Source: Moniliella sp. 'wahieum' (lineage: Eukaryota). From it: 64,000 nt of DNA. The notes beneath the pieces were generated by a model. That model was not told the DNA's origin and searched no databases. It saw only the letters and a program-made list of their open reading frames with translations. Position numbers and translations under genes: made by a program. Of this stretch, positions 6,914-62,873 are shown piece by piece; the stretch's first letter is position 1; every line of letters begins with the position of its first letter. The stretch is taken from assembly GCA_003971905.1 (NCBI GenBank), contig RSEE01000099.1:124001-188000 (forward strand), read 5' to 3'.

Positions 6914-8670
6914 CCTACCTGGGCCGCATGCTCGCTAGAGGTTCCCATGGTCCTGCACTGCTAGCCCTCTGAATATTAGGCTTAGGTGGAAGGAGAGCAA
7001 GTTGGGCTTCAACTGGTGCAAGTCCCCACCTACAGCACACGGCTGTAGTCACTTGTCATGGGACTTCGGCAGTGGGGAAGCCGGGTTGGGGTTTCTGTGC
7101 AAATCTACGGCTGCCGATGGCTTAGCACGTGTCAAACTATACCAGGAGATATGTACGATGCTGATGCACTGATGTCGATGATGTCGATGATGATCGATGA
7201 CATGTGCTGGGACGAACAAGGCGATACGATGGAGTCGAATGCTCGGATTGAAGATGCGCCCACTGTAAGGCAGTTGTTGGTTTGATTTGCTGCCCCTAAT
7301 TAGAAGCTGCGCGGCTGAAGCTTGAAGCATGAAGCTTTTTTAGTAGCTTGCGCAGGGCCTATTTAACTTAGCGTGTCTTGGGTTGCCTGTCTCGTGACCC
7401 GGCAGGTCAGCGTCAGCGCTCAGAGCCGCTCAGCGTAAGAATACTTGATAATAGTCGTCAGAATACATAGCCTGTGGTATTTGTATGTTCGGGTTAAGTT
7501 GATCGCCACTTCAGCCACTGCTCATATAGTGGTCCGAGAAGAGAGTTGTTTGTGTTGCACGTTGAGTGCACCACGCCCCCCCCAACGTCCAACCACGGTC
7601 TCAGTAGCACCAGTGGAGCAGCACTCTTAGGTCTTAACGGGAACTTGGTACCTAAGGCTTTAGGCCTTACGGGCCTTAGGACCCCGAGGCCTCAGCTTCA
7701 GCGCCGCATCATCGATCCGTTCTCAGTCGGACAGCAGCAAAACAGACTAATAAGTGGATGGGCTTGTTTTGAGATCTAAGACCTGTGGGCCGCTGGGCCT
7801 GGGGGCCTGAGCCTGAGGAAGGGCCCGAGTCAATACTGAGGGTACTGAGCACGTTGACCCTCTGTTTTGCATCGATGAACGAACGGGACGAACGTTATGA
7901 ACCCTTCTTCTCTCCTGTTGCTATTCGATTCTGGGTACGACCGACCCAAGCTCGCCGGTTTACCAGCTCCTGGGTACGCGCGGTTACCCGGTGTGTTGAA
8001 CCAACAGGCGACAGAGTAGGCTGATATCAGGCGTGAGCTACGTCACAGCGCCCGCACGGGGCAGTGTGCCATCCTATCGCCCGAATCAAATTCACCTCCG
8101 CGGCGCAGTGGCGGGATTGTGTGCCTGAGGCTGGCTGACGCGTGAAGCTGGCAGCTGGCAGCTGGAGGCCTGATCGACCTGATCGATGATATCGAACCTC
8201 GAAGCGCAGGCGCAGGCAATGCCCTGCCCAGCCGGCCTTGCCTTGCTCCTTCCTTGCCTTGCTCCTTGCCCCGCGCCCGGCGAGCCACACCACATGTTCT
8301 TACGGCCGCCGACAGGGACCTGGCAAGTGCGATGGACGAGATGGGCAAAGAAAGGTATTAGGTTGGGCCAATCATTAATCATTAATCAACCGCGCACACA
8401 GTTCCATTGCTATTGCACCATGTTCCACACCGGTCTAAGTCACGCGGCTAGCTTAAGACTTTGGGGCCTCTGTGGTCCGACGTCTGCCAAAAGCCCAGTA
8501 TTCTGTCATGAAACGTCTGAACCGGACAGTTTATCCATCGTACCTCCCGGTTGAGTTCAACAGCTGAACACGCCCACGTGTCCTGGGTCCCATTAACGTT
8601 AAACGTTTAACGTCTAACATCTGCTGACGCACGGGCCATTGATCCTTCGGAGGTATGGAGCCCAGGTAAG

Positions 8671-8678
8671 TATATTAA
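8671..8678 (+). promoter_or_regulatory. Putative TATA box of GAPDH copy 2 (TATATTAA)
   Basis: About 100 bp upstream of ATG 8774. Context cccaggtaagtatattaagggg is conserved with the copy 1 promoter. Confidence 0.55.
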
Positions 8679-8773
8679 GGGGGAGCTTGGGAGCGAGGGA
8701 GACGATTCCCCAGAGCACATCTCTACTCCAACTACCTTCGTCTCGAACGACAACTACTACTACAACAACAACC

Positions 8774-9852
<1,079 letters not shown>

Positions 9853-10547
9853 TTCCTTCTTTTTCTTATACGACTCGTAACGATCAATGCTATTGACCAC
9901 AGGTCCTGCCGTTCATACCATCTGTCTTCATAGAGCAGCTACAGTTGTGGAAACACAGTTCGCTAGAAAGGCTTAGACAGCTCATTACACACTTAGTCAG
10001 GTTTGTCGGGAACAGTCTCAATTCATCTATATGAACACAAGTCTCCAGTCCCAACCCTCCTGCCGGCGACCAGGTCGCATATGCCACACCATCGCATCGC
10101 CCCTCGGTTGACTGAAAATCACCTTTAGTACCTATACCTTCAGCCGTGCCCCCACGAAGCCAGACTGTGAAGTAATTTCCGCCCAGCCTCGAGCCTGAAG
10201 CTCAGACGACTTCATGCAAGCAAACTGCCAGGAGCGAGCTCCTAACGTTGAGTGAGTGATTAGGGACTTAGTGACATGCATACTAGACAAGCAAAGGCAA
10301 GCAAAGGGGGGCACGTGCGAGGCAAGGCTATAAATATGCTCCGCCAAGCCTCAGGTCTCAAGCCTCAAGCTTCAAGCCGCTCAGGCAGGCCCAATCTCAA
10401 AGATTAATACGGCCGGAACCACAGGGCTAGGACTCGAGCCAAAACTAAGGCCAGGACCAGGACTGGGGTAGGCTGGGGTGGGTCGGTAGGACTCTGGTCC
10501 AAGGACGACCACAGCCTGGGAACAGGGCGCAGGGAGGAGGTATGGCC

Positions 10548-10622
10548 AGGGGCAGGGATAGGGGGGGGGAAAAGGGGCAGGGAGGGGGCAGGGAGGGGGC
10601 AGGGAGGGGGCAGGGAGGGGGC
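10548..10622 (+). repeat. (GGGGGCAGGGA)n 11-bp G-rich tandem repeat
   Basis: About 4 perfect units plus degenerate flanks, with multiple runs of 3 or more G. Confidence 0.9.
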
Positions 10623-11033
10623 ATGGGCAGTAGTAAGATAGCAAAACGAAACAACACGCTGCAGTACAACATGGGACTCGGACCTTGACCCTTGATCTTG
10701 CCAACCATCCATCCTACCCAACGTACATGGCTAACTAGCCTTGAAGCTTGAACCTTGATCATGTCACGTTTTCCAGGGCAAGACTCAGTAGACTGGCAAC
10801 CTACAGTCGAACAGCCACCGCCACCGCCACTCGGACATCTACTCTTGGGGCGTCGTCGCCCCCACATGAGCGACAGGGGCAACACAAGCTCGCGGAGTAA
10901 GACGAGAGGGTAGAACAGAGCAGTCTCACGGGGGCAAGTCACCAAGGATACGGCCTGGCTCGGCGAGGCGAAAGGGGTAGGCAAGCGACCCACCACAGGT
11001 GCCGAACTGAGAACAACGACCCGGTCCATCATC

Positions 11034-12869
11034 CTACGCCACTAAGCCACTACGCCGCTCGACTGCGGACAACGGAAATCGGGGGAGGACGACTGGGCAA
11101 CCGCGTCGCAGGGCTATAGGCCAAGGCGCATAGGGGGTATTTCTTGGTGTGTAGAGCCAGGGCGCCAATGGCCAAAGGCATAGGAGGATCAGCGACCAAG
11201 TGGGAAGGGGGGAGCGAAACGGGGATAGACAGGCGGGATGCCAACTGGACCTCACCGCCCCGCCCCCCCTCCTCCCGCTGGACGTAGAACCATCCAGTGA
11301 TCCCGTATTTCCAACTGACGTTCCACGCTTGCCTGAGCGCGACACGTTGTTCCTTTTCCAAGCATTGAAAAACGGGTTGTGGTGCTCATGTATCGGATGC
11401 ACTGCTGTCGGTGACCAACTTGGACGAGGGGCGCCCGAAGGCCGGCGGTCCCCTGGTCCCAACAACGGCGTAGCAAGTGAGAAGGACAATGGGGCCGAAG
11501 AAGGTGTTCGAGCGGAGGGGGAACAAGGGGGCGCCTGGTTTAAAAAGTCCTTGAGGGACATGAGGTCTTGCGGCTGAGTTCGTCGGCGCGCCGGGGCAGG
11601 GGTAGCAAGGTCTGGTTCGCCAGGTGCCCCGAGTCCGAGGGAGGAAGCGGGTCCAGATCCTGCGCCAGGTCCGCATCGGGGCGGCGGAGCGTGGTGGTGG
11701 TGGCGGTATGAGTAAAGGTGTTGGTCTGGGAAGGGTAGTAGTGGTTTTCCCGATCGAAAAAGCGCGAGGTAGCACCCAAACAAGCCAAAATGCCCGCCAC
11801 CGGGAACACGTACATGAGCGATACCGATAGGTACGTGGCTACCTCGAGTTTCGACGTTGCGAGCACAGCCCAGTTGGCTGCGGTCAAGCCGGTAGGCACC
11901 CAGAACCCAAACGCGATGAAATGCAGGATGCGGACCAAGGTCCACCACAACCCCACCCTTCGCTGCGGCGCAGCGTACGCAACAGACGCGCATCCTCCAG
12001 CCGCGCGGTGGGTGTGGTGGGGGCGACCGAGGGCGCCAAGCGCAACACCGGATCGGGTCCAATTCCAATCAACCTTCGTATTTGAGCCAAAAGCCCATTC
12101 CCACGCGACGACCGCATGCGGAGCCATTGGCGGGACAGGCCCAGGTTGACATAGACCAGGGCAGCGACCGAGGTGGCGTAATGCGCATGGTCCCACCGCA
12201 GCCGTTCTATCGTGGCTCGCTGGCCCAGGATAAAGGTGGCAGTTTGACTCCAGGCAAGCTGGACACGCTCTTCGTTGTCGACGCGGTGGACGATGCGCAG
12301 GACGACGCAATAGCATGCGAGCGTGACACATTGCAATACCGACGGCGGGAGGATGACGAGGAACTGTTTTCGGCGACCAAACAGAGCCGAGGGCCAAAAC
12401 ATGGCCAGACGCATGATCAGCGCCCAGACGACGACCCAAGGCACAAGGAAGAGCATCAGGTCTTCCACCACATACAGCCCGTCGTAGGCACTGGCGGGGA
12501 TGCGCGCATTGACCATCTGGACCGTCCAGAACACTGTGTCAAAGACGGAGGCGACGAGGCCGAGCAGGATGGAGGCGGCGAGGAGCCAGACGATGGGCGA
12601 GTGGCGCTTGGCGCTTTCCAGTCCACCCTTGAGGAGGATGGTGGTGAGGAGCATAAACAGAACAGTGCAGAGGGAGGTGTAGAGGATGATGTAGGTGACC
12701 GCCAGACGCACGTCGGGCAGGCCCTTGACAGAGACGCAGCGGCCGCCCGTGCTTTGGTAGGCATAGGCAGCGCTGGCCAGGTCGATGTAGGCGCTGGTGG
12801 TGGGGTCGGAGGCGTTGAGGGAGGCGATGAAGGAGGATATTGACGTAGGTGTCGCCGCCAAAGGAGCAT
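11034..12869 (-). CDS. Uncharacterised seven-transmembrane membrane protein (GPCR-like topology) with a Ser/Pro-rich tail
   Basis: Seven hydrophobic segments across ORFs 11884..13236 and 11540..12439: LAVTYIILY.., IVWLLAASILLG.., LMLFLVPWVVVWALIMRL, FLVILPP.., SVAALVYVNLG, ILHFIAFGFWVP, LSVSLMYVFPVAGIL. An intron-like segment (GTATGG..CTAAC..CAG, 12890-12952) lies just upstream of ATG 12869. Confidence 0.7.
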
Positions 12870-13014
12870 GGAGGCAGGGGGATGCCGTCCTGCAGGTAGG
12901 TGTTGTTAGGGCCGTGGGAGGCGCGGCGGAGCAGCTGGTGCATGCTCCATACTGGCCAGCCGGGCGGGCTGGAGAGGCGAAGAGATGGCTGCGGTGGCGG
13001 GGGTGGGGGGGGGG

Positions 13015-13115
13015 TGGGATGGGATGGCGTGGGATGGGATGGAGTTGGATGGGATGGGATGGAGCTGGAGCGGACGGAGCGGATGGGATGGCGCTGGATC
13101 GGACGGAGCGGATGG
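13015..13115. repeat. (GGGAT)n-type pentanucleotide low-complexity repeat
   Basis: Directly visible gggatgggatggc..gggatgggatgg tract. Confidence 0.85.
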
Positions 13116-13799
13116 GAGCGGGGTGGGGCCGGGCCGGGAGGCTTGGCAGGCTCGCTGGCCTGCGCTGTGGTTCGACGCAGGGAACGCCACTGGCCTCGGA
13201 AATTTTCATTCGCACAGGCGGAGCCTTGCCAAGCACATGGCCGCCGCCGCACGGGGGCAGTGTGTGGCGGGGTGCTGGGTCGTTTCAGCGCGCCTGGCGC
13301 CTGTCTCGGTTCGTTTCGATTGGGCAGCGCAAGCGCGCAGGGGCACGCCAGGGTACGCTGGGGACGCGACGCACGCCGCTGGCTGGACGTGGCCGAGGAC
13401 GACGAGCGTGGAGGACCGCTGCCTGGCCGCTTCCACCCCCAGAGGGTGTGTCCGGGGACTGGTGCGGAGGCTGAGCCTCAGCGCTGATGCTGATCTGGTC
13501 TGAGCACCGAGTGTTCTGGTCCTGAATGTCTGGGGGGTCCCCCCCGGGTGGTGGCAACAGCGTCCGCTAATGAATAACCAGCCAGTCGCCGCCTGTCGCC
13601 GCCTGTCGCCGCCAGTCCCCGCCAGTGTCCGGCCCAACAGCTGACGATAGCAGCGCCGCCTGCAGCGCCTCGCCTGCCTCCCTGAGGCCTGACGCCTGCC
13701 TGACCCTGGCCGCCTTGACCGGTGACCTGCTCCAACGGCCGAACCACAGTATGACCGCCACCATCCGTCGCCCCAGTTGCAGATGGGACATGGGAGGCC

Positions 13800-14440: not shown

Positions 14441-16687
14441 TCTCCATAGGCAAGTATGTAGCGACATACTGCGGCAGGCAGACGGCGCGGTCTGTGAGCT
14501 ACCAGAAGCAGGAGAGCTCGATGAGCGAGAACAAAAAGGTAGCAAGTTGAGCGAACAGGTGGCGTCGGTGGTAACCGGCAACATGGTAACAGGTAACCGA
14601 TAACCGTTAAGGAGGAACAGAGGAATGCGCCAGTGGTGTCTACTACACGTGGGAGGTACGATCGGGACAAAGTGTGGAGGCACCATGTGAGAGCGCAGTG
14701 CAGTTCGAGGCTAGCCCAAACCTTTAACTAGGTGCCACTCACATCATAGCCACGGTGCAACGGCGCAACGGTGCAACACTTATACGTCCTCAGTCACCTT
14801 ACGAGCCTCACGCCCCTCTCTGCTTCCCTCGGCGTCCCAACCACAGCCGAACACTCAGCCAACTGCCGGCACTTCCCACAAGTCAACAAAGTCAACGTTC
14901 AACTAACCTTCAGTTCTACCCCTCTCCAGGTCTGCACAAAGCTTCAACCAACCTCCTCGTTCAACAAACTTCAACCGTTGAAGGTTCACCAGGTTCAACG
15001 TTCACCCCTGTTCACCGGTCACCCCTACTGTTCACCGCCTTCAAGCTTTAGCGCATTTAACGTCTTCACGTTCGACGTCTTCCCGTTCAAGCTTCAAGCT
15101 TTAAGCTTTATCGTTTAACGCCTCAAGACGTGGCGTGGCAAATCGTGTTGAACCCGCCACAGTACTCGATCATCGACCTGCCACAGCCAGATCTCCGCAG
15201 ACTCTCTGCTCTCGGTTTTCCCATGTGTGCACGCGTTCACGTTCTCAGATCTCATTAATCATTGCAGATCTCTTTCCAGCTTCGGTTTTATTTTCCCCGC
15301 CATGCACCCTATACCCTACCGTACCTACCATGCCCTGACTTCCACATTACATACTACACGTTGTGAGTGATCGATCTGATCTCAGATCTCATTAATCTCC
15401 CTACCCTACGCTCTTATCATATCTCACGCGTCACGCGAGGCAAGACGCTCGGTTGGGGGCTAGGATACATATACCTAGTTAGATCCCTATCCCCGCTCAG
15501 AATGAATGCGAATTGCCTCTATCCAAAGCCGAACGAGTTTGGACCGTCCAAACCAGCGCGGTTGTCCCTCGTTCCTTGGTGTGTTGAACATGTCCACACT
15601 TTATATAGCCTCGTTCGGTTACGTGCTGAGATTTGGAATCTGAGATCTGACACGTTGACCCTCAACGTCTCAACCTACGTCCAAAGTGTTCGACGTAACA
15701 CGTTCAACCGGCCATGGTGCATGGAGTTGGACGTTCAACATTCGAGCACATCTATGGCGAGAGCAAGTATAATCTTCAACAGTTTCCCCTTCGCCCATTC
15801 TTATATCTTGGGACTATTACGCATTAGGGATACCGGTAAGCGCGGGCTGTGAGGGAACCCTTACCCGGTACTGGTTACTGGTTACTGGCTGGTTATCGGT
15901 TACTAGTTACTGTGGGCTTACCGGATACCTCCTTCCAGGTCTTATTTACACAAGCGCACTTTGTGCGGACATACCTACGTCGTAGACTTGCTGACCTCGC
16001 AGTTTCCTTTCATCTTTAGCCCCATCACCGGCATCATCGTGTGTTGTAGCTATAACGCTGTACAGCCGATTTACCACGGTTACCACGGTTGTCGACCGGT
16101 TACGCAGTTACGGGCCATCACTCTGTTTCTCCTCTCCTCGGCTGGATTTTGAGCAAAGCAAATGCATCACAACCCATCGGGCAGGTTGATCATCGTGGGA
16201 ACAATCGCGCTCAGCATGGCCAATCTGGCGAATCTGGAGATGGAGTCAATACTGTCAGAATCTCAGAACAGGAAACCACACCGGCAGTACCCGGCCTTAG
16301 TCTCACGACCCCCACCCCACACTGATCATCGCGCCCGAGCCGAGCAGTTTTTGCCAAACAAGCCCCTCTCCACCTGCGCGCAGGTATCGGTAAGCTTATA
16401 CGGGCGCACCAGTTCGGGGTGGACGGGGTTGCTGTTGTCAAACTTGCGTGCCTTGGGGGACCTGGTGTCGAGGGAGCGGGAGGGAGCGGGGGTCGGGAGG
16501 CAGATGGGGGGTTGCCTGGTGGATCCCGGTGCAGCGCAACATTTTCGGCGGAACGCGGCCGAGGCGGAATTTCCGCCTTTTTCGTGCGGCTCTAACTGCC
16601 TGGAGGCGGCGGCCCTGAAGCAGGGCATGAAATGAAGCTCGGCGTGAAGCTACCGCCGCGCTCGCCCACGCCTGCCTGCCGTCTGCC

Positions 16688-21900: not shown

Positions 21901-23400
21901 ATTTGGACCAAGTCGACTTCACCGCTTTGATCGCCACATTCAGACCCAACGTTGGGGTGGACCTATCCGGATGGTCCCAACCCCTCCCTGCGCGTGGCTC
22001 TTGAGAATGCGACCGTTTCGTTTATTTTCTCACTGCCCCCTCACGAAGGGCATCCACCACGGCAGAGGCATCCCCCTGCCTCCCCCCATCGCCTGTGGAG
22101 AGCTGACCTACTACCATCTGTCCGCCAAAGATAACCCTCCATTCTCTAGCTCGTGCGCTGTTGTATTCCCGAGACATCCGCGTCCACAAGGAGCAGGCTG
22201 TGGACAACGAGGATGGGACGAGGCGTGGGAGGAAGGCGATGCGTACTGACTACTGTGAGAGATGGGATCCCTGGAGCAATCGGAAGATCAGGAACGGAGT
22301 GGGACCACACGGTTTGTGGGACTCGGCAATGCAGGAGTCGATCACTGTGTTGCGTCCCGGGGGATGGTACATGAGAGTACCCGACGCCTTTTTTGGAACG
22401 CTGGGAGAAGGAGCTGCTTCGGCTGCTGACTCAACTCGGGCACTGGAAGAATCAACCACTGAGAGTCTCTATGCTGATGTCGAGGAGCGGATCGGTTTAT
22501 GCGCAGCGTTTCTTTGTCCCAGCCTTAACAATGGTTGAGAGATAGAGATAGTTTTGGGGGCGATGCCCCTATGTGATGCCATCAATGCATGATAGGCATC
22601 CTTCCTCTTTCAGCCCGGACGCTCCCTCTGTGCTCCCCGGTACCCTCTTCGGCTATTATATATGGCCCAACCCTTATTCTCGTATAGCCTCCTGTACCTC
22701 TCCTCAGAACCACATCCTCTCCATTCTCCTCCTCCTTCAGCAAAGATGCGCTTAAACTGTAACTGGCAGTCGGGGCTAACGGAAAGTCGGAGGGAGGCCA
22801 TGAAAAGTCCTGTCAGAGACGGAAGGGAAATGGCAAGATCGTTCGTGAAGAGAGTGAACAATCCGGAGGTATCGGGCAGGGAACAAGAGCAAAAGGGAAG
22901 AGAAGAGCGGGATGCATGGGATTTCGATCAATAAGTGAGAGAGAGAGATGATACTTAGGGTCCTGTGCATGAGACGCACCAGCTATATTATACCGCACTC
23001 TGATCGGTGCGCTATACTGAAAAGCTACTACTACTTGAAAGCTTTTGAAGAGATGGCGCTGCGACCATGAAGTACTAAAAGCTAAAGAACATATTAGGGG
23101 CATCCAATGCACCACCAGAGGTACCACCCCGGCCCCCAATCCGCGGCACTTGAAGGGTTTGACGTGTCGGAAAACAGTGTCTCGCCTCGAGGCCGGAAGG
23201 GTGCCGACTGTCGCAAAATCCAACGTTTGGGCTATTACGCGTTATGCGTTACGAGCCGTGGGCTCGCAGCAGATATCCTGTCCCCTACTCCTGTTCATCT
23301 CGACCTTATCCGTCCAAAACACGGAGGACATTGATAAAAAGGACTGCCGGAACGGCGGAGATCGCTGTTGCCGCTCTTCCACTTTCCCCGCACCGCATGG
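18991..23400 (-). mobile_element. Highly degenerate Ty1/copia retrotransposon relic (RT-RNase H clear; integrase, protease and gag faint; upstream boundary uncertain)
   Basis: Minus-strand motifs occur in copia order: VIDSCIAESH (~22340, protease-like), LLGYTEA (~21300), YAAVVGS (~20020), CDPDFFA..RENRRSLSG (~19750-19800), GLSTREA, PITIHC, KHFDIQ, LTKALPRSRF (~19300). These are followed by GAGGAG|TGTT at 19227, resembling a PPT-LTR junction. Confidence 0.7.
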
Positions 23401-26400
23401 CTGCGCAGATCGCCTATCATGCATCACTGTCGCACCGTACGCTCACATGTTGTAGCCCTGTGTGACATGTGACTTGTGACCAAAAGGAAAGAGACCATCC
23501 ATCGCATTCACAGAGCATCCCAGCCTTGCCACCACACATCACCACCGGGGGTAAGTGAGATATACATATAGAATGGAATCAATCAATATACAAACCATAT
23601 CAATCGAGTACTTCGTTTTATAGTACTGTGAACGTCGAGTACTTATTAGTCAGGCTAGCCAACTAGTCACTAGTCACTGTAGTGGCAGGCCTCAGGCCCA
23701 GGATAAATCAGGACTTCGAAATCATTGTATCAGTATAGCTCTCGGATCTCAGAGCGCGCAGAATACGGCACAGTTATTGAGAACGAAGTTGAAGCTTGAA
23801 CTTGGAAATTGGACGTTGGACGTGTTGGTGTTACCACAACGGCCGTTCCCCCATCATTAATCATTGATCAGATCTTCCAAAACCCCAGCAGAGGTTCTGC
23901 GCGAAAAAGTGTTACCGTCTTTGCTTCCATCACAGCGTGTAACATGTAACTGACGTGTAATGCATCATGTAACCGAGATGTGCACTAACCAGTATTAGCG
24001 GGGGTATTTGCGTAAAGCGTACAATGCCTAAGGCCTAATGAAGCTTGAAGCTTGAAAAGCTTGAAAGAGGCCGGTCCGGGAACCGTACTACCATCATGCA
24101 TCATGCATGCAGTACAGTATTAAGGAAAGGTTAAAAGTCCTGTTTCGCCTCTGTTGTGACATGTTCTGCGTTATATGCCGCCTGACGCATGAGATCTTGG
24201 TGTGAGACCTGAGAAAGCAAAACCATTATCTTCGACGAGAGTTACGGTGCCAAAGGTCTCCCGAATATCGGCCCCTCAAAGGTCTAAGGCCTTTTTCATC
24301 GGCCTCATTGATCACTGGTAGACCGCGATACCCCGTGGGTCGATCTCACAGGGATTTCAGGTTTCAGGCCTCACTCGGGCCTCCTCAGGTGCGCACTCTC
24401 CACCATGTCGATGCAAGAAGACGAATGAAGGTGTGGAACGCGCGTAACGCGGGTGTTGTGCAATGGGAAACAGCTATGAAAAAGTCTTGTTACTGTTACC
24501 AGGTATACTTGAGTTACTATTAGTTACTAGTTACTAGTTCTTGTACAAAAGCTTTCTTTCGTGAAAACACATCGCGTCGCATCTCCAATCTATCTACCAT
24601 CTCAGATCTCTTAAATTTGTGATATCTTATCCCGCCATGCACGAATATGACATCACCATGTATGTCCAAACAAAACACGCCGAGAGTATCGCCGCCACCC
24701 GCGCCGCTCTCTCGTCGCTAGCCATGATGCATGATGCATGATGGCCAGCCGCAAAGGAGCCTCGTCTACTCGCCGTAGGCGTGAGCGCTCTCAGGCTGAG
24801 CAGGGGCTTCGCGCTTATAGCACACTCTGAAGACTACATAATAACTACTGACATGGAGACATGGGCTTGAAGTGAAGCTTGAAGCTTGAAGCGCGAAGAA
24901 GCTTTGATCATTCGTGGTTGTGACATGTGACACATGTGATGCATATGAAGACTGGCCACGTATTAAGCACTAACATGTAACAGCAGCTAGTGACGAAGCT
25001 AGTGACTTCTCACTTCTCACACTCTCACGTCGTGAGCAATGGATCACGATGATCGATGATCGCGATGAGCAATCGTTGTACGTTAATGATCTAAATGATC
25101 CGCGCGAAGCGCCAGCGATCTCGCTCACAGGCGAGGGCCCACGCTGAGGTTGCCGGTGACAATGTGACAATGTGACAGCAATACGCCAAGGGACGTGGTT
25201 GCGGGGCGGTCGAGACTATGGGCGGCGTGGGGGGGGTGGCGCGTCACACGCTCATGACGTCACCATGGATAGCCGTATGGGGGGAGTATATGTGACTTGA
25301 AGCTTGAAGCTTGACTACTAGGATCCTAGGATGATCGATGTGACTGGTCGATTAGTCCTGCACTACTCCATTGCTCGAGCGAAGTTTGACGGACGCTACA
25401 GGGAAGGCTACGAGAACTAAGGACCTAGTGATTGTGATGCATGCGAGCAGTGACTAGTGACTAGTGAGCCGCTTAGCGCTTAGCGGAGCACAGTGTGCAG
25501 TGAGCTATTAGGGATCAATGATGGATGTGATGCATGTGACTTGCGATGCAGTGACATCATGTGACGCGACGGGCGGCAAAAGTGACGCGTGTGACGCACG
25601 CAACGAGGCTTTCAGGCCTCTCTGGATCTGAGGCCCGAAGAGAGGCGAGCGGCAGTGGCATATCGTAGGGTATATCGTGGGTACCGTAGTGCAGCGTCCG
25701 TATCGCCGGAGTCATGTGTGTATGTGACGTAAGTGTTGGTGATCTCTTTCGCTGTATCGACACGGTGCCTCGCACCAGGTACCTTCTCGTACCCCTTTCC
25801 CCCGGATATGCTGCTGGGCGCTGTGGGACCACAGAGCCACAACAAGGCAAGATAGTCGACAGACAGCTGGACAGTTGGACGGCAAGCCAGATTGCGACAT
25901 GAAACGCAGGGCAGCGGTTAACGCGTCAATGGTACGGTGGGGCAAGGTGTGGGCGCCCTAGGGTGCCTCTGCTGGCGGGCGTTGTAGCCTGTGGCAGCTG
26001 GCAGTGGAGGCAGGCTGTATAGCCTATCAGCTTGCGGACGCTGAATACCGTTTGTGATGCGATCGCGAGTATGTGATCACCACGCCGGTGTAACGTGCAA
26101 CACAAACTATCGCTGGAGAGACCCAAGGGCAAAAAACAAGGGAGCGCCTACTCCTCGTCGGAGGGACGCTGTGGTCGCGACGCGTGACGTGAGGAGTAGG
26201 AACGATGCACAATGGACGAGGCGCGATGGCTCGATGGTCACTGGTCCGTGCTCGCCACTGCTGGCCATAGTGGTGTTGTAATGAGCCTGCCAGTGGATAC
26301 CAACGGATTGAGGAATGCGGCATTGGGGGCGTTTTTGCTCCGTAGTTAGTTGCACATCTGTTTTTTTGCCGTCTCGCACCGTCTCACATGCGGGGTCCAT

Positions 26401-29453: not shown

Positions 29454-30199
29454 TGGGTTAGACCGGGCCGTAGGTCCGGCGGTCCTCTAGTAGTATGTAG
29501 TTAACAAAATCTGTGGTCATATAATAGCGAAGGTGTATGGGCCATTGCACCTCTCGTACCGCGTACATCCTCATAAGTGATGTGATTTCGTCGGAGACAT
29601 GTCTCGCTATCCTTACTGAGTACTGAGTACTGACTCTTGGGTTGAGTATGCTGAGTACTAAGATTACTGAGATATGAGAAGAGAACCGCGAGAGGATATA
29701 GAGTGTTCACTATATGATCATCGGAATTCTACAGTCCTTTTCATCAGGCCGTCGACCATAATATTTGATGGGTAGTCATTAACAAAGAGGACCATTACTT
29801 CTCAATAAGGCCTCGTTCAACGTATTCAACATTCATCGACATCGGTCGTCATCGAGAGTGTATCAGCAAGGTCATACAATACTTTCATCTGCAGTAGTCT
29901 CGTCAGGGTTTGCTGACAGGGGTTTTCCAGATCGAAACTGAGTGAGACCCACATCTCCAGTTCCACCTCCAGATTCACATTCACAACAGTAGATCATTGA
30001 AGTTCAGCGTTTTGCTCACTACGGTCCAGCGCGCGTTTGGCGCTCAGCCTGAGCGCCCTTTCCGATCTCAGCGCGCAATGCGCACACTATGATAGAGTGT
30101 GGCGGAGAGGAACAGGACAACCAACAACGTTGAAGTTCAACGTTCAACCGGCAACAGCCACAGTCGTTCCTTGACGCAACATTCCTTCTTTTCGTTGTC

Positions 30200-31182
30200 A
30201 CAGTAACTAGTAACGAGCCACATCCCACCCAAACATCCTGACCAAAACAACCGGAACTGTGACCGCCCACACTGACCAATAATTAATAAGGTGTGGAGAT
30301 GTCCTTGATCTTGACGCTTGAGGCTTTATGTAGCTTGTAGCTGATCAATGTGATCAATGTGCCTACTGATACTGATTGATGTTCGGTAGTATCATCGGTA
30401 TCGATTTCGGCCCTCTCAATCATCACAGTACAACCTGTGTTCTCCACGTGTCCGCCAAGAGACGCACATAGAACCCCAACATCAGCACCGCGGCCATTGC
30501 TATGATTCCGCCCTGGGACCGCAGAGGGACACGGTTCAAGTACGACTATTGAATACATATATCGCCGTGGCGAGGCTGTTCCAGGATCCGGACTGCTGAC
30601 GTCTCTCCAAGAGGGGGCGGATTCATTGCCCGGGAGCTCAGGGACGGTTTCGAAGCTCTTCATCACCACGTTGGTCGTTGCATTGTTGGCCACGGCACAC
30701 TCGAGGCTAAGGGGGAAGTTGGCGCCTCTTGGGGTGACGTGGGGGCGGCGAGCGCCTCATCCGTCGGATTCTTCCCCAGGGCCTGACGTGCCGGTGTAGG
30801 ACCCGAGCGAGAGTGGCGCGAGTGGCACGAGGAGCCCAAGCGGGTGACTTGGTGCAATTGACTCGGAGGCGGGGTGGGCGCCGGGATACAGTCGTCTGAA
30901 CTGACGACTGTGGACTCAGGAAGTCTGTCGATTGATTGAGGAAGCCAGTTATGCCGGATTTTCTGTTTGGGGGCGCTCTCCCTTCCTAACCCCCGCACGG
31001 CTGTCGATTGGCCTGCCAGGGCCAAAGCCCTTTTTGACAGCAACTGCTCATCTGGACTTCGACGCGGGTTTGAGCGACCAACACGGGCCCTTGCCATGCC
31101 GCACGGTCATGTGTAGGTGGCCTATAGGCCAAACACCTGCTCCGCCCCACGCGGCGACGGCCCTCTGTTTGCGCTCATAACG
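30200..31182 (-). mobile_element. Possible decayed copia 5' region (PBS-like site plus gag N-terminus)
   Basis: GTTATGAGCG at ~31172-31181 resembles the fungal copia half-tRNAiMet PBS GGTTATGAGCCC. Downstream VPELPGNESAPSW resembles the gag motif PxLxGxENYxxW. Confidence 0.3.
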
Positions 31183-41313: not shown

Positions 41314-43786
41314 GGCGGCGGCGGGGGGGTGGGGGCGAGGCGTGGAGGTGGAGGAGGTGGAGGAGAAGGAAGAGAGCAGACGGGTGGAGAGGTGATGTAC
41401 GGAGGGACTGGGATTGAGGCCTGAGGAGAGCATGAACGCTGCGGCTCGGATGGACTACGAATGGGCGCAGCAGCTACGTGCTAATACACCGTGGGTACAA
41501 AATATACAACACACACGCCATCACTCGCTGCTCCAGAACGGCGCGTCTGCTCTGCCCTGCTGCGCCGCTGTGGCGGAGAGTTGGGGCGGATCCAGAGGCA
41601 AGGGTTCGGATCCCTCACTGCGAACACAACCACTGGCGGGAGCGGCATATGGGGCTCTATCGTATATCATCCATCGTATGCCTGCCACATCTACACGTCG
41701 CGGCGGGTTTGTGTCGAGCCGTGCTGCCGCCTGAGGGCCTCTGCTCCCGAAAGGGGAATAGGCTTCTTCACGGTTTGCCCAGAAGCCTGTTTACATGGGC
41801 ATCTTCGCCATCAGTATATACTCCGGCGCGGTCTGATGGCCTCCCCCATATAGTTAGTACATACACAGCATTCAAGTCGGATAAAGCTGATCCGAGCGCC
41901 GCTTGCATCGGCTACAGCACATATATACCCTTTGTGGACCACGAGATCCCACACCCCGCTGCTATATTCTCTCAACATATAATAGCACCACACAACTTAA
42001 AAAGGGGGACGAAGAAAAACGCTGCGCCTGTTGTGTGCCACAGGCTGCCAGCTCGCGCCAACCCATTCAGGAACCTATGGGGTCGCTATTAGCAGGTCAG
42101 GACCCTCCCTGGTTTCCGCCATATGCTTCCAAACCGCGGAGGTAGCGCCAGCGCGCGAATAACGCTTGCATATTGAGCGATGAACGATGAACTCGATGAA
42201 GTTGAGCGTATACGTTGAACGTTCTCCGACGATGAGAGACTTTTTTTCAGCAGTTATTTTACTTCCGACGTGCCAACTGCTCAACGTATGCTCAACATGT
42301 TCAGCACTACTACTAAGTTAACGCGGTGGCTCTCGCATTGTAGTATGTATTAGTGTATCTCCCTCCTTTGCGCGGAAAAGGAGTAGAGACTGTGCGCTGC
42401 GCAGGTGCCAACTCATACGGGGGGGTTGTGGGAGGCTTTGTGCCGGAACGGGATCCCCTGGCGCCGGGAGGAACACATCGTGAGAGGCGCGTTGCGTCCC
42501 ACAGTGTGAGATCACCGTTCCCAGACACAAATGTCCGTCGCTGAGCCACAACTTAACTTCTCATTCTGTAACTACATATATCATTGACCGAGCTTAAGGA
42601 TGTATCGGACAAAAAAGAACCGCTGCGCCTAAACCGACCTGCTCATCAGTGTGTGTTGATTGTTATTGGCGCCAACCCGTTTAGGGAACAAGGGGGGAAT
42701 CGCCAGCAGATCAAGGCCCTCTGGTACCCACCATCCGTTCTCACATACTACCCACCGAGCGCGTGTAGATACGAATGAACGTGTTTGTTGAACGTTGGAC
42801 GTTGAGGGTTGACATCCGAGCGGTGAACCGTCTCCATGGAGACTGCCAGTAGTTAATTCCTTCTATAGTGCCCAAACATCTTGCTCGCTATCTTGGTGGC
42901 ATAGTATGCTCGCGTCGTCATCAGAACCAAAGGAAAGAATGGCTGCTCTTGGGTGCGTCACGCGGGAGTGAATGGCCTTGCTCCGTGCTCGACCCCCATT
43001 CTCAACGCCATAATACTTCCCCATACCTGACTCGAGTCTGGGGCTGAAGAAGTTGTGTGGCGTTTATATATGCAGTCCTGGCTACGGTGAGGTAAATGCT
43101 AAGCACACAAAGGAAAGTTGATGGGGGGGGAAAGACGTCCCAGCAAAGGCGCCCGGAGCAACGGACGCCTCTAGTATGAATTCAACAAGTTAATGCACAG
43201 GAAGCCAAAACCCCTCCCAGTTTGGACCGTAATAGGCAAGACGGGGAAAGGGCAAGAGACAAGTAGGCTGCCCCAGGGCCTAGGACCGTCGCTGGACAGT
43301 ACCAAAGCACTGGGGTGGACAACTCTTGAGGGGGGTAAACGGGTTCATGGTGTGGCGGGGACAGACTCCTCGAAAAAGAGGAGCTTTCTTGGTTTAAAGA
43401 AGCTTAGCCAACTTGCGCCAGTTGCACGGAAGTCATTCCGTCAACGATGAAACGGAAGATGCAAAAGCCGGAGGGCGACGGGAAAACGACGAAAACCAAG
43501 CCGGCAAAGGGATGGGTGGTGTTGTGGTCAAATGGGCAGACAGACAGACAGACAGACGTGTCAAAAAGATCAAGACAAGGCGAGAGCCGAGGTGTGCAGA
43601 GGTCCACATTCGAAGGACTTGCGAAGACTAGGACGAGGTGTGGAGGGATCCACATTCAGAGGAAGGCAGGCTTGAGCAAGCGGCCGCGGGTACAAGGAAA
43701 ATCAGAGTGGAGGGATCCACTTTCGGGAAAGGCGCGATTCGACGATCCGCCGGGGAGATAAGGCTCTGGGATTGCCAGCAGCCACA

Positions 43787-43952: not shown

Positions 43953-44971
43953 CGAACGTTCGTTGGCTTACCAGAAACCGGTAGATGACCCATGACCATG
44001 ATTAAAACACCACCTTCAACTTGATACCAACCGATTGGGGACAGAAGATCGGGAAGGGGTCGGGGATCGGGGATCGGGACGAGTAGCAACAGAGGACGAA
44101 AAGCTAGCGGATCAAGGAGGGCGCCAACGCTCCCGCTGACCACACGCCACACCGAACCCGTTTACCGAGATTGTGTGTCCGAACTTGCCTTCTTGCCGTC
44201 TTGACAGATCCAAACGCAAGCAGCGGCCCGACAAAGGGCTGGGGCTTTGCCAGTGGGAGCGCCGACGCGAGGGTTGGCCAAGCTCCAACGCCCAACTGAG
44301 CCGCTGCCTGGCCCGACCGCTTGACGCGGGGAGAGACGGCGCCCGCCGCTGCCGGCTGGCCGTGGGGGGGAGCGTGTGCATGGGGTCTGCTCCACACACG
44401 CTGCCCCATGGGCACCACAGCCAACCGATAACGACGGAGGGGGGCGCCGAGCTCTGGCGGTCGGTGGAAGGAGAGAGCATGGCGGTGGCTGGATGCACGC
44501 GATTTATAGCCCACTGCCCCGCCCCCCGCCCGCCCGCCCGCCGGCAGGGCGCCGGTGTGGCGCAGGCACTAGGCACAGCGCCTGTGTTCGACTTAGCCGA
44601 CCACCAGCGACGGGTGGGGTAGGGTTACGTTCCGCCGCGGAATCCCTTAGATCGTCCCAGAGCTGTCAATATTCACTGTCTACTCACGATCAGTCATCGA
44701 TCATCGACAACAATCATCAATCATCGACATCAATCATCAATCACTTGATCTGTTGCAACAGGTCGGATATTTCTTCTGTCCAAGGTACTCACTCACTCAT
44801 CTCGCTCCCATTTCCAATTTCTTCGTCCCGAGCATCTCGCTCTTCCCTGTTTCTTCCACTTCGCATCATGTCCTCTGCTCTTGCTTCTTCCCCACGAACA
44901 ATGCTACATCCCTTATTGGCCTAGTCCCGACTCTGGTCTCCCTCGCCTTAGCCCCGACTGGGACAGGCAGT

Positions 44972-51727: not shown

Positions 51728-52148
51728 GACGGGCGTGCACAAGCGAGAGGTAGCGAGCTCACAAGCCCGCTTTCCTGCCCTGGCCAACAAGCACGGAAGA
51801 ACAGATGGGGCAGGGCGGAATGTGGGTTTACTTCCGCCCCGGTAATGTCATGATGTATGACCGGTGACCCCGGTGACCGGTGACCGGTCAACCAGTCAAG
51901 CTTCAAGCTTCAAGTGACCCAACCAAAATTTCAGCTGGGTAAGCGGTGGATTTCGGCCCCACGACGTTCACCTTCGCCAGGCTATTTGTTGGATTCTCTC
52001 TTTCTCCCGGAAGAGGTCGGATATCATGTCAGTGCATCTATTTCGCTGCACTCGTGCAGAGCCAAGCGTTGCATCTCAAAGAGATGAGTCCACAGGGGGT
52101 CATCATTGATTGCAGAGTGCATATCAGAACAACACAAAAGAACAACTG

Positions 52149-57600: not shown

Positions 57601-58106
57601 GAGTAGGTCTAGCGCGGCGTGGTTGTACTGTTGGTGAACGTACATGACGTGCTCGATGGTGTTGGCTGCGGTGTGTTGGGTGGCGACGGCAGCTTTGGCC
57701 GCGTGTTCGTTTGTGGGTGTCGGTTTCGGGACGATGTTCAGCTTGTATGAGGAATCCGCGATTGGTGATATTTGCCATGCTTGTCATTTAACCAGATACC
57801 TTTTCGGTGGGGGGCGAACCAGGATGCGTGGCCTGCGTCACTTATTTGCGCTACGCTCGTGAGATTGCTTGCTATGCCGGGGACGTATAGACTGCCGGGT
57901 AGGTCTACATGGATACATTTGCCGTCGGTACACTTGATACCGATGCTACATGTTCCGCGTCCACTGGCTTTAATATGTTTTCCATCAGCGATTTCGATTG
58001 AGCGGTTGCTGGGCTTGAGGGTTTTGAATACCCTGAGATCCTTCCAGATGCTAGGATCCGCGCCCGAGTCGTGACGAGACTGGATGTCCTGGTTGCCCGC
58101 GAGTTC
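54633..58106 (-). CDS. pol: Copia pol: protease, integrase, reverse transcriptase, RNase H (several frame breaks)
   Basis: PR DSGA. IN H-H-CPTC with HADVV / KTDNAPE / NGVAER. RT RARLVAGG, DVHSAYLNA, KSLYGLHQSG, VHTDD. RH YTDADLAGD, AAEY, YCDN, ADILTKP. The stop codon falls in the first bases of the 3' LTR. Confidence 0.93.
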
Positions 58107-59339
58107 CTATTTGTCAGATAGGGCAAGGTCCACAGACAGGGTCTCCCCTTCGGAGACGTCGTCTTCGGTGGCAATGTGCGCTCGCGCGGAGCTGTTGCGG
58201 TGCCATTTGTTGTTCGAAGGAACCCCGGTGTGGCCGGACGGCTTTCTCGCAAGAGCACCCCCGCTACGGGGAGATGCACCGGCAGGAGGACCCCCGCTAT
58301 GCTGCTGGGATCCCGCGCTGTCGTGTTTGCCAGCGCCCGAGTTGGCGGTCCGGGGGTGACGGCCCCGGTACGGAATTCTGTACTCTGGGTCCGCTGGGAT
58401 TCTCTCCACGTCTTGCATTGTCTCCGCCAGAGTCATGTGCTCTAGGCGGCGACGGTCACCAGGGTCGCGGAGGGCCCCGACGAGGATACGGCGGAATTGC
58501 TCGTCCGACATCGGTGTGGTTGCGCTGATCCGGTTGCGGAGCGTCCCCATTTCAGATAGGAACTCGCTCCCGCTGCGCCGGTTTTGGTAGCAGTGGTGAA
58601 AGCGACTGGACAATTCATGATACGTCTTGCAGTCGACCGTACCGTATTTGTTTCGCAGGGCACGGAGCAAGTCAGCTGACGTGTCAACGTTGTCCTGTGC
58701 AATAATGGCAGATTGAACGTCGTTCGGGAGGTGGGACCACAGAAGGTTCTGGAGGCGTAGATCGAGGGACGAGTCGTAGTGTGGTGACGATGGACCGGAG
58801 CGAACGATGTCCTTCGCGGCGGGGTGGATGCGGTCCAGGATGTTGAGGATGGAGGGCTCCCAGAGCACATATTCGGTGGGGTCGCGGAAGGCGTCCTTGC
58901 GCGTCGCGTTGGTACGCTCGATCTCTTTTGACGCGCGTTTCTCAGCGTGGCGAAGCTCGGCCATGTCCTCACTCGCGGATGCAAGGGCCTCACGGGTGTT
59001 TTGCGGCTTCGTGAATTCAACGGCCAATACATATTTCTCCAACGCGAGGGTGAGCGTGTAGATCCAATTTTCCTTTCCGCCCGGTGTTTTCTTGCTCTTC
59101 GGTCCATACGCCGCCGTGTGTGCATCCGTAGCGAACGAGCGGCATGTGGAGCGGAGATTGTCAGCGCTGGTGGGCTTGAACGCGCGGGTGCTTGCGAGGA
59201 GGTTGTCTCTGACGTCGGTGAGGGCCTGTTGCCAGGTCGGGTCGGAGACAGGGGTGGTGGTCGGTTCGTCGATGTCCTGCGCCTCTTCGATGACAGAGAC
59301 TTCGGGAGGAGGGGTGTTTTCTTCCAGTTCGGGGGGCAT
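58107..59339 (-). CDS. gag: Copia gag
   Basis: Long ORF from MPPELEEN (ATG 59339) with YVLWEPSI, SADLLRALRNKYG and EFLSEM helical gag-like segments. Ends at TAG 58107-58109. Confidence 0.8.
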   Translation of the reverse strand: MPPELEENTPPPEVSVIEEAQDIDEPTTTPVSDPTWQQALTDVRDNLLASTRAFKPTSADNLRSTCRSFATDAHTAAYGPKSKKTPGGKENWIYTLTLALEKYVLAVEFTKPQNTREALASASEDMAELRHAEKRASKEIERTNATRKDAFRDPTEYVLWEPSILNILDRIHPAAKDIVRSGPSSPHYDSSLDLRLQNLLWSHLPNDVQSAIIAQDNVDTSADLLRALRNKYGTVDCKTYHELSSRFHHCYQNRRSGSEFLSEMGTLRNRISATTPMSDEQFRRILVGALRDPGDRRRLEHMTLAETMQDVERIPADPEYRIPYRGRHPRTANSGAGKHDSAGSQQHSGGPPAGASPRSGGALARKPSGHTGVPSNNKWHRNSSARAHIATEDDVSEGETLSVDLALSDK

Positions 59340-59486
59340 GGTGGCTGATTTTTCCTTTGTTTTTTTTTGAATTGGTTGGTGTGTGGTGCCGATGGTGGCG
59401 TTGGGGTGGTGGTGGTGACGGTGGGCGCCGATGGTGGTGCTGAGTATTGATCCTTTGCGCCAGTGGGGTGCTTCAGATTGTAGCTC

Positions 59487-59697
59487 TGTCACAGGCCTAG
59501 CTAGCGATGCTGGCGATGGTCGATGGAGATGGCATTCAAGAGCTAAGGAGAGCTAGAGCTATGGGCCTTGATAGGCTCCTGGCCTGGAGGCCAGTGGAAA
59601 CCCGTGGAAGGGTCGGAACTCACTGCCCCGGTGCACTGTGTGGATCGGGCCACGTGTCACTGAAGGCCGATGGGCTCTAGACCACTGGTGGTCAACA
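59487..59697 (-). repeat. 5' LTR of the copia element (211 bp)
   Basis: Identical to 54428-54638. Confidence 0.97.
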
Positions 59698-60602
59698 CAC
59701 ACCGCCCGCACTAGGCACTGGGCAGTCTGTTCTGCGTTGTTTTTTCCGCAACAGCGAACACCTTCACTGCCCCGTGTCTCGCGCACATTCAGGATGCAAC
59801 CTCATGCGGTAGAATCCAATCCAGCAGTCTACGTCTGTCCACCACTCTGCCAAGACGCCAACAACATTCAGTTGATTCGCACATCCCATCTGGGCCCTCG
59901 AGCGAGCCTCGACCATCGCGATTCACGCGTGCCATACAATCTACCCAGAGGCATTCCGACGCAGTGACGGTCAGGTGACCCGCTGGCTGTCCCACCGGTC
60001 ACGTGTAGATCTTTTTGAAGCCCCGATTTGTTTGCAATTTCAGGCGCCTTTTCACAGCGCTTTCACATCTCAACACAAGAAACGCTGCTATGTATGCCCA
60101 ACTCTCTCCCTCCACTTATTTTTAGTTGAACGCCGAGAGAGGACGCGTTACTAGTTACTGCCCGCCCTGCAAAGCTTCGCGAAAAGAATCCCTTTGTGTA
60201 TGCCCCTGCTCTTTCCCGTGGTCTTCTGTCGGAGGCAAGAGAGCAGAGTTGTTGTTAGCGTATTGCTCCACATGCGAGTCTACACATATAGATGCTAGAG
60301 AGACTGTGTATATTTCTTCCTCTCTCCAGGAACGAATATCGGAGGAGGAGAATTAAGTGCGCCGAGAAGTATACTTTGGCGAAAGTGTTGCCCTAATGGC
60401 ACAGCCATCTATTTACCAGTAGCAAACAGCAGTTACCCTCCGCAGCATCCGCAGCCGGGGCGGATCCCACAGCCGGTGGCTCTCTCTACACACACATAGG
60501 ACAGAGACAACGCGCGCTCTCTCTCTCTTTTACCGGTTATATAGTTCCTCGCTCGGATGTCAACATGTCAACCACGTTCATCCGTGTCCCACGCGCTTCC
60601 TA

Positions 60603-60672
60603 GTGTACGGGACCGGCTGGCGAGAACCAGACGAGGGTCCGATATCCTGGCGATCCCCCTGGTTCCTTAACC
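60603..60672 (+). repeat. Dispersed ~75-bp repeat, copy 2
   Basis: Aligns by eye with 29378-29453. Confidence 0.7.
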
Positions 60673-62873
60673 TTGGTGGCGCTTCCAAGTAACCCCTGCA
60701 AGATGAACGATTCGGTTTAGACGTAGCGTTCCCCTGTCCCAGCCTTCAGCTCTGTCAATGAAATGGACGCAATCTAGAAAGAAGAACTAACTGTACAGGT
60801 ATGGCACATGCCCTGTAGCGTATGATAGACACATCAATGAGATCTGAGACCTGGAGTCCTGATGGTCCTCGAGGGTGATGCAATCGCACTGGTGGTGGTA
60901 GTAGTCTAAGACAACATCAACGCCTACAGAGGACATCAAGCAGCGAGTCGCCACCAGGGGCTATGGCTGCGGAACAAGGAAAACCGAAGGGGAAAGCAAC
61001 GGAACTGTGCTATCGGGGCTATCGGGACTGAAGGCACCTTATGACCGAAGCACACGATCCACCCGCGGGTGTAGCTCAACAACTACATAATAGGCGCATG
61101 AGCACGAACCCACCGCGTTGATGACGCGATGACGTTGATGATGCCCCCCCGCATCGGAAAGTGCCGGGAAAAGGCAAGGGACATATATTTTTGGGGAATG
61201 CGCATCATGTGCATCATGATGCATGATGGATGATCCTGTCAAAGTAGGTATATATAGGTAGCCGGTGGCCTTTCTGCATACCTTTCGGAGAGCAACCATT
61301 GTGATCCTCTGACTCGAAAGGAACCCCCTGTTCCCTGTTGATACGCGGGCAACTGCATCTGCGGTCGGGCTAAGTGGGGCGAAAGCTCCAGACACAGCCT
61401 GTGAGAAAAACGCCGGATGCCAGGAATATGAAATGGTTACCCCACACTGAGATGGGGATGCGCTATCGGAACAAAGAGGCGGAGGTTGGGGCTGATGCAT
61501 GATGGCGTTGATGCCGATGAACGATTGGTGGCGGGATCAATTTTCGAAGCTGCTGGGCCCAAGGCTTTACCATCAGTAGGTCTGGTGCGGACGGGATTTG
61601 ATGTGAGGGAGATTCTGAGGCGTCTGAGCGCACCTGGGAAGAGCCCGAGATCTGATCTATGGATGGAACACTGAGTGTAGGACCGAGTACTGATTCATAT
61701 TGATGGACGGAAGGGCGCACGCCATACGTAGTGCTGATGAGCTGTTGCTGTCCGCTTCATGGCGTGCTGCGAACAAATAGGGTTGGCCGCATCCACCTCC
61801 CCAATCACAGGTCACCGATCAGCAATCAGTGCATCGATCATCGATCATCGATCAGCTATCCCTCTTCTCCGCTGCTTCTGCCTGCGCCGGCGTTTTCAGC
61901 ACTGGATATCTGACACCAACATGGCGTACACCCAGCCGTGACGGTGATGACCACGTTCGCAAGCCTTCTCTCCGCCTCGGCCTTCCTTCTCGCCGCGCGC
62001 GGGGGGCAGACTGAGATCTGAGATTGGGAAGATAAATTCTTGATCTAGATCCGTGCCCAGGCAGGGCACGCCAGCCCCCGCGGCTGGCCCGGAGTCAGAG
62101 GGAGTGCTGGTTCTGCGCCCGGCTTCAAGCTCCAAGCCTTGGCGCCTCGCTATCGGGCTGAGATGGCGGCATGTGCGGAGAGAGGACCTGCCGACCAGAG
62201 GCTGTCGGACATTATACCCTGCAAAGGCAATCTCGAGAACCCGTGCAAGCGCCAGTAGGCGATGCATGATGATGATGCAGAGCTGGTAGCCACCGCCGGA
62301 TGCCCGCCTCGGGCGAGTCTGCTGGTCAGACACGCCGTCTGCATTGAGGCGTGGAAAAAACATCTCGACTCGTCCCGTGTCTGCTTGCCTCGCGCCCCCG
62401 AGCTGCCGCCGCCCAGCGCAGCAAGCCTCTGCCCACGCACCCGGCTGCGAGCCCTCCATTCGCCCACCCCACCCGGTCCTTTCCATGATGCATGAGGTAT
62501 GAATCAGAGTATGAACAGGAAGATGATGTGCACGGTGCATGACGCTGACGACGGATGAAAAGCCAGTGACTAGTGACTAGTGACGCTTGAAGAGGGCGAG
62601 CGAGGAAGCTTGAAGTGCATGACGTGCGATGCCCCCCCGGCACGCGACCGTCTGCCCGGTTATTGGTCTGCACGTGTTTGGGGGATTATAGCATCCTCTT
62701 CCCTGCCAGCTCCCCTGTTACACTGGCAGCCAACCCGCGGCATCAGTACTAGTAGTAACCCCGTATATGTAACTCCTGTACCTCTCTCTCCATATATATA
62801 CCGCCACTTGCTCAGCACTCTCCCATCCCTCCTCTACCTTTCTTCCCCACCTTTCCTCTTCCTCCCTGACACG

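Follow-up and report, generated by a model that had tools for sequence, protein, structure and literature searches.

Several families of cut-and-paste DNA transposons are known to seal the DNA that flanks them: the transposases of Transib, RAG1, hAT and MULE hairpin the flanking DNA, and it is the host that opens and joins the ends (PMC5499845; this and the other papers are cited for the parts of their text that were available). The donor footprints of these systems combine a target duplication that is kept in part, short palindromes copied from the flank, and end joining (PMC5499845, PMC5873905); those of Ac/Ds contain palindromes centred on one base, with 28 types in 128 clones (PMC5873905). 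The nucleases Pso2 and Artemis cut 2 nt 3' of a hairpin apex, which predicts footprints with exactly two inverted bases (PMC3299998). Here, we analysed a window of 64,000 nucleotides from the basidiomycete Moniliella sp. 'wahieum' (positions 124001-188000 of contig RSEE01000099.1, hereafter C99), whose non-coding DNA repeatedly carries a short element consisting of T-N-A, a 4-bp palindrome (the core) and the same T-N-A again. We consider it likely that these elements were left behind by the excision of a cut-and-paste DNA transposon whose insertion at NN-TNA-NN duplicates 7 bp, and they appear, by analogy, to work like RAG/Transib-type donor-site repair. They differ from Ac/Ds footprints in that the palindrome is even-centred and sits precisely where a 7-bp duplication ends, and in that one product dominates; compared with other flank-hairpin footprints, they are dense enough to seed a genome-wide repeat family. 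Footprints with such inverted (P) bases are known, but in the literature searched, which covered few subscription journals, we did not find the pattern described, nor its 7-bp target, stereotypy and density.

The assembly comprises 69.5 Mb in 223 contigs. The best named relatives of a Gcn20-like protein encoded in the window are found in Tilletiaria (70%), Thecaphora, Malassezia and Pseudozyma, which places the fungus in the Ustilaginomycotina, among the relatives of the smuts. Statistics were collected on a non-redundant sample of 678 kb, made up of C99, part of C124 and C5, and 19 stretches of other contigs. Coding sequence was called with a self-trained hidden Markov model (HMM), which agreed with the manual and Pfam annotation of the window except for one missed gene. 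An earlier note on this window had listed 24 sites with arrays of a 7-bp unit, a 6-bp A..T-bounded palindrome plus one spacer base; the perfect form of the element is present at 21 of them, the sites at 8594, 42789 and 23685 being degenerate. The window contains 53 exact period-7 doublets; the unit is a 6-bp palindrome plus one base in 27 of them, against about 11% expected by counting, and 25 of these 27 are A..T-bounded. When N is left free on both sides, the 10-mer T-N-A/4-bp palindrome/T-N-A occurs 92 times in the window versus 6.4 +/- 2.6 in local order-2 Markov simulations, whereas its C-, G- and T-bounded versions are at chance (31 observed against 28.4 expected, 28 against 25.6, and 7 against 6.7, respectively). 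The enrichment that was to be checked against non-palindromic doublets and other closing pairs is therefore confirmed, and only the A..T-bounded form stands above chance. Arrays with an identical N on both sides number 67 in the window and use 14 of the 16 possible cores; their absence from coding sequence, which had also been noticed, holds for all 67, and only two were found in the 264 kb of coding DNA of the sample.

The element is not confined to the window. In 20 stretches of 10 kb from 20 contigs, it was found 159 times versus 5.9 expected, with all 20 stretches positive, and one 17-letter array word has 2,280 matches in the genome versus 0 for its reversed control. Its density of about 0.6-0.8 per kb extrapolates to roughly 40,000-55,000 elements in the assembly. 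Two aspects of the earlier description have to be modified. Short tandem arrays are not the usual form, single units predominating (366 of 435); and, while the constant geometry of a palindrome with one spacer base stands, the spacer is not free. It is the same base on both sides in 211 of 247 cases, which indicates that TNA has been duplicated rather than mirrored.

The assembly contains many regions in more than one copy. Contig C37 is a second copy of the window, with ~83-95% identity, and other loci are present in up to three copies, with identities of ~96%, 89% and 70%, which suggests that the genome is hybrid or polyploid. Because the same regions exist in several copies, the origin of the repeat can be observed between haplotypes, for which a pairwise alignment of 250 kb between copies inside the assembly was used. 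This alignment also contains 2,361 single-base indels, and 1-nt frameshifts are common in coding regions, including most genes of the window; together, these suggest uncorrected long-read errors. Below, the target is written y'x' TNA ab, where xy is the reverse complement of y'x'. When clean non-coding indels were sorted by size, 67 were of 7 nt, versus 36 of 6 nt and 23 of 8 nt. An exact change of y'x' TNA into y'x' TNA xy y'x' TNA, or its mirror, accounts for 31 of the 70 clean 7-nt indels, whereas the same rule with ANT, CNG or GNC as the centre accounts for none of the 70. The founding event is not a pure tandem duplication: in 14 of the 31 rule-fitting indels the direct homology is shorter than 7 nt, so that tandem duplication or slippage cannot explain them, and the inverted dinucleotide is present in 13 of the 15 indels whose direct homology is exactly 5 nt. 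Comparing orthologous sites, which had been recommended for related strains and was done here between haplotypes, indicates that the elements arise through a 7-nt TNA rule.

The genomic elements bear the same signature. In 432 elements, the period-7 match reaches exactly 2 bases further on one side in 53 and 49 cases versus 28 with no extension, a peak which implies that the core is copied from the flank. Mixed-core triplets show both predicted flanks in 10 of 14 cases, as expected if a site is hit again from the other side. One event was polarised as an insertion by a third copy, using local alignments at six chosen sites; a three-way alignment with the distant copy, with six printable sites, gave no polarised event. 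Variation of the slippage type is present as well, since 21 of the 70 clean 7-nt indels are whole-unit tandem changes, and the number of units differs between alleles at several arrays. The repeat is a mutation product, not a motif.

The lengths of the products define the target. We counted products by the number of bases kept from each possible 4-nt hairpin overhang, in both orientations. The 7-nt product (four bases kept on one side and none on the other) was found 172 and 179 times versus 3.0 expected, the 8-nt product (four and one) 26 and 27 times versus 0.3, and the 9-nt product (four and two) 22 and 13 times versus 0.1; the product with four and three bases kept was never found, and control centres reached at most 8, 3 and 4 in the cells of the 7-, 8- and 9-nt products. 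This family of products implies that a scar is a TNA-centred 7-bp duplication that carries two inverted bases at one end and has been shortened by 2, 1 or 0 bases at the other. The target duplication is accordingly retained in whole or in part: the 5-, 6- and 7-nt duplications all begin 2 nt before TNA, with TNA at offset 2 in 123 of 212, 13 of 27 and 14 of 26 cases, respectively, whereas none of the six longer duplications (8-10 nt) has it there. The P bases are complementary to the flank end in 123 of 182 genomic cases. One 8-nt product and one 9-nt product are polymorphic between haplotypes. Outside TNA, the target shows mild preferences only, and G or C is favoured about two-fold at N. The duplicated stretch measures 7 bp rather than 3, and a 3-bp TNA duplication could be rejected because 3-nt duplications are not enriched and the core equals the flank. 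Also rejected was a 5-bp duplication with a hairpin on one side, given that P bases were seen at the A end in only 3 of 182 cases. The 678-kb sample also contains a non-palindromic heptamer array, centred on TGA and more than 10 units long, which may be an expanded plain 7-bp duplication.

In the mechanism that we propose, a transposon would insert at NN-TNA-NN and duplicate 7 bp. Upon its excision, both flanks would be closed into perfect hairpins where the duplication ends, and a nuclease of the Pso2/Artemis type would open each hairpin 2 nt 3' of its tip, a position we infer from PMC3299998, leaving 4-nt self-complementary 3' overhangs. End joining would then fill one overhang and trim the other, mostly to blunt, generating y'x' TNA xy y'x' TNA ab or its mirror; less often, one or two target bases would be kept, which would give the 8- and 9-nt products. 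For a duplication of 7 bp, the cut site of Pso2 and Artemis does predict two 4-nt overhangs, and filling one while trimming the other predicts the products seen, in both orientations. Pso2 and Artemis activities are known in vitro and in budding yeast (PMC3299998), whereas a search for the DRMBL domain gave one weak match only in this genome. Repeated hits at one site, together with slippage, would let scars grow into arrays; a hit resolved on the opposite side would create a new core and hence a mixed array; and frameshifts would purge scars from coding DNA. The sequence-independent generating process that had been suggested can thus be kept as a generating process, namely, hairpin-opening repair at transposon donor sites, but not as sequence-independent, as it needs T-N-A.

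The following features of the window illustrate these products, with the strand given where one is assigned.
7160..7200: cluster of an 8-nt product (7160-7174), a 9-nt product (7177-7192) and a canonical unit (7191-7200)
7316..7325: canonical unit with core AGCT, between the divergent GAPDH copies
8372..8388: two-unit array with core TTAA
9926..9930, plus strand: site free of a scar here; the C37 copy has a 7-nt product
13681..13692, plus strand: founding 12-mer (5-nt duplication and two inverted bases), absent in C37
14264..14279: 9-nt product, that is, a whole 7-bp duplication with two inverted bases
14892..15909: 10 arrays grouped upstream of the Gcn20-like gene; in the mixed-core array among them (15245-15261), each of the two cores has its matching flank
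23235..25482: the densest cluster; a long non-coding region that holds 20 arrays of many different cores, several of them one unit off C37
24051..24066: 9-nt product within an array
29617..29633: two-unit array with core GTAC
30202..30213, plus strand: founding 12-mer; C37 has the short allele
41415..41426, minus strand: founding 12-mer in the opposite orientation; C37 has the short allele
44694..44703: canonical unit with core TCGA
51858..51912: cluster of units with core CCGG, a 9-nt product (51863-51878) and a two-unit AGCT array that is largely absent from C37
60148..60159, minus strand: founding 12-mer; C37 has the short allele
61203..62583: cluster upstream of the last gene, with a 9-nt product (61203-61218) and arrays at 61217, 61493, 61838, 62012, 62486 and 62567

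Several other features of the window and its surroundings were noted. Two near-identical, head-to-head GAPDH genes form a 4.2-kb inverted duplication at positions 5692-9903, which is also present in C37, and positions 1-19048 are inverted relative to C37. A long terminal repeat (LTR) retrotransposon with RVT_2 and integrase matches occupies 54428-59697; it is flanked by a 5-bp duplication, free of arrays and absent from C37. A tandem duplication of ~86 nt at 43780-43960 is single in C37. A TG..CA element of 1.4 kb that has 5-bp duplications and is polymorphic between haplotypes is located at C99:6056-7446 and C99:70288-71688 and also occurs in C37 and C5. Contig C220 begins with a telomere-like hexamer repeat (positions 1-12).

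The scars are distributed unevenly with respect to genes. In the 250-2000 nt upstream of genes there are 3.8-4.7 arrays per 100 TNA, versus 0.46 within 250 nt of 3' ends; no arrays were found at the 190 TNA sites of intron-like gaps or at the 429 TNA sites of four LTR elements. The upstream enrichment is probably due to accessible chromatin. Orientation relative to transcription is unbiased (89 against 71), in agreement with overhang filling on either side. As for conservation, 208 of 397 elements (52%) are intact in the other haplotype, versus 55% of control 10-mers, and the change rates between haplotypes are 1.5% for TNA, 5.0% for the cores and 3.8% for the flanks; it should be noted that the elements were chosen as perfect in one copy, so that the neutral expectation is about half the flank rate. 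These figures agree with elements that insert into accessible DNA and leave scars under no strong selection.

Resident elements with a matching target exist in the genome. Four contigs (C23, C29, C34 and C35) carry facing end motifs with matching NN-TNA-NN words, with spans of 4,982, 4,984, 4,959 and 4,870 letters, respectively, and a fifth facing pair with a matching word, ~390 letters apart, is located on C20. The ends of the pairs were compared over 7-8 letters; the target word of one pair was the seed of the pattern search, and that pair is therefore not independent evidence. All ten ends of the five pairs share the next base. A shared internal word marks five copies, all with TNA-centred flanks at both ends; the fifth of these (C11:228234-233096) has flanking words that differ from each other, as after recombination between two insertions. 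The C29 element is inverted with respect to its target word, relative to C34 and C35, implying at least three independent insertions of the 5-kb element. In a control, a nine-fold larger class of non-TNA words yielded no facing pair among the 100 listed of 217 matches. Inspection by eye revealed no further facing pairs in the classes WNTNANW, SSTNASS and SNTNANW/WNTNANS, nor among the 100 listed of 125 SNTNANS matches.

PIF/Harbinger and Tc4/Tc5-type elements make a 3-bp TNA duplication. The reading of the scars as footprints of the ends of such an element was rejected on the grounds that the core equals the flank and 3-nt duplications are not enriched. The resident elements may be related to the CMCT clade, which comprises EnSpm/CACTA, Mirage, Chapaev, Transib, Plavaka and ESTA (PMC12730594), and to the fungal CNIRT6 and CNEST (PMC12810828): their ends carry CACTG two bases inside, the clade holds the hairpin-forming Transib/RAG1, and the genome has two matches to Tnp2 (PF02992). 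One of these matches (C17:557095-557541, E 1e-12) lies inside an open frame of 351 aa that is a candidate autonomous or domesticated transposase; the other is at C34:514908. However, CMCT elements are described with 2-5 bp duplications and mostly a CA start (PMC12730594, PMC12810828, PMC6379663), whereas the resident elements have 7 bp and a CT start. Two features of EnSpm/CACTA proper are lacking: the five pairs show a 7-bp duplication instead of 2-5 bp and have two extra bases outside CACTG at both ends instead of 5'-CA..TG-3' termini. The hAT7 elements of rust fungi (PMC12730594) share a 7-bp duplication in basidiomycetes, but hAT-type odd-centred palindromes are not the product here, where the palindrome is even-centred. 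Heptamer arrays may also occur in Ustilago intergenic DNA. No look-alike windows were found among the other genomes surveyed, and in 80 metagenome loci with a three-unit array (394 kb, from at least 120 matches) other cores are not in excess (15, versus 16-30 for control centres).

A number of observations weigh against excision of a transposon as the source of the scars. As for the products, 39 of the 70 clean 7-nt indels do not fit the rule exactly, several being one substitution off, and the polarised insertion is a single event. P bases were kept on both sides in 0, 0 and 2 cases, the two having identical overhangs, and plain TNA duplications and double-blunt joints are not enriched; neither the one-sidedness of the P bases nor the lack of a double-blunt excess is predicted by the two-hairpin model alone. 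As for the elements, the scars number in the tens of thousands, compared with about six resident copies, and four of the five distinct resident target words end in TG, a narrower spectrum than that of the scar flanks. No inverted-repeat element with a 7-bp TNA duplication was found in the 1.03 Mb scanned, and the large haplotype insertions with readable ends are TG..CA elements with 5-bp duplications. As for the transposase, both PF02992 matches lie outside the pairs found, and PF13359, PF13358, PF10551, PF04434 and PF13960 have no match in the genome. PF05699 (the hAT dimerisation domain), PF03184, PF18758 and PF18759 have none either, in searches whose controls were silent too; PF13359, PF13358 and PF03184 represent the PIF/Harbinger and Tc4/Tc5-type transposases. 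Family searches do work on this genome, as PF00867 was found at 12 places, so that the FEN1 family is present. The few copies and the many scars could be reconciled if a low-copy element is still moving and leaves one scar per move.

The same shortage of copies would suit a free or domesticated transposase-like nuclease that makes a 7-nt staggered break at TNA, with hairpins at one or both ends, and inserts nothing, the resident elements being relatives that share its target. P bases on one side only, and the PF02992 match that lies in a 351-aa open frame apart from every pair found, also speak for such an enzyme. However, a 7-bp duplication hairpinned at its exact edges follows naturally from insertion and then excision, and elements with exactly this 7-bp TNA duplication exist; we know of no nuclease of this free-cutting hairpin type, and we regard this explanation as improbable. 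Fold-back synthesis, in which a 5-nt 3' flap or frayed end loops back over a single base closed by T.A, is extended by 2 nt and is then ligated or re-copied, is more doubtful still. It yields the main 7-nt product exactly, self-extension of a 3' flap followed by ligation has been described (PMC12633238), and there is a weak enrichment of GNA loops (12 of 90) and TNG loops (12 of 74). Likewise, the alternative duplications from 3' flaps (PMC12633238) and short template switches (PMC5453318) resemble the scars in being duplications with an inverted, locally templated spacer, but they have no fixed target or lengths in the available text and do not predict the 7-bp frame. The 4+1 and 6+3 products that fold-back predicts are not enriched (14 of 68 and 1 of 21), whereas the 6+2 and 7+2 products, which it does not predict, are; the stronger C.G and G.C closing pairs are at chance; and neighbouring scars within 5 kb do not share orientation (101 the same, 132 different), unlike the outcome of a lagging-strand process. 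It is the finding of the 8- and 9-nt products, anchored on the 7-bp frame, that lowers this reading; of the fold-back or template-switch synthesis put forward in the earlier note, what stands is its account of the main product.

The skewed distribution of the scars, dense upstream of genes, sparse near 3' ends and absent from intron-like gaps and LTR elements, is what would be expected of a cis-regulatory or chromatin signal, with spaced TNA half-sites kept by selection in promoters. The core is, however, dictated by the flank, the elements are conserved no better than the neighbouring DNA, and the cores change faster than the flanks; this is very unlikely to be their origin, and the structural or chromatin signal that had been envisaged, if maintained by selection, is not supported, although a secondary use of some scars is possible. 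Least credible of all are ordinary slippage microsatellites or a long-read assembly artefact. Whole-unit tandem changes do make up part of the 7-nt indels, and the assembly has many indels of 1-3 nt, genes included, but slippage does not account for the 14 rule-fitting indels with short homology, and base-calling errors would neither avoid coding DNA nor leave half of the elements common to both haplotypes.

We therefore retain excision of a transposon with a 7-bp TNA-centred target as the preferred explanation. A more far-reaching version of events, which we offer as a tentative speculation, is that a single-copy or domesticated RAG/Transib-like transposase has acted as a hit-and-run mutator, cutting at TNA in accessible upstream regions on tens of thousands of occasions, so recently that the haplotypes differ, and rewriting promoters with a self-amplifying palindrome grammar; the transposon lineage with its 7-bp target would then lie outside the described CMCT families.

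In summary, the view presented here makes excision repair a main source of non-coding sequence in this fungus and provides a route to microsatellites that is not begun by slippage. The scars would record, on a very large natural scale, how hairpins are opened and how mismatched 3' overhangs are joined in a basidiomycete. The joining would follow a sharp rule, by which one overhang stays whole and the other loses two bases or more. The scars also suggest a transposon lineage whose 7-bp target is centred on TNA; if the link holds, this lineage would widen the known range of the CMCT clade, and it might possibly be used as a tagging tool for these fungi.

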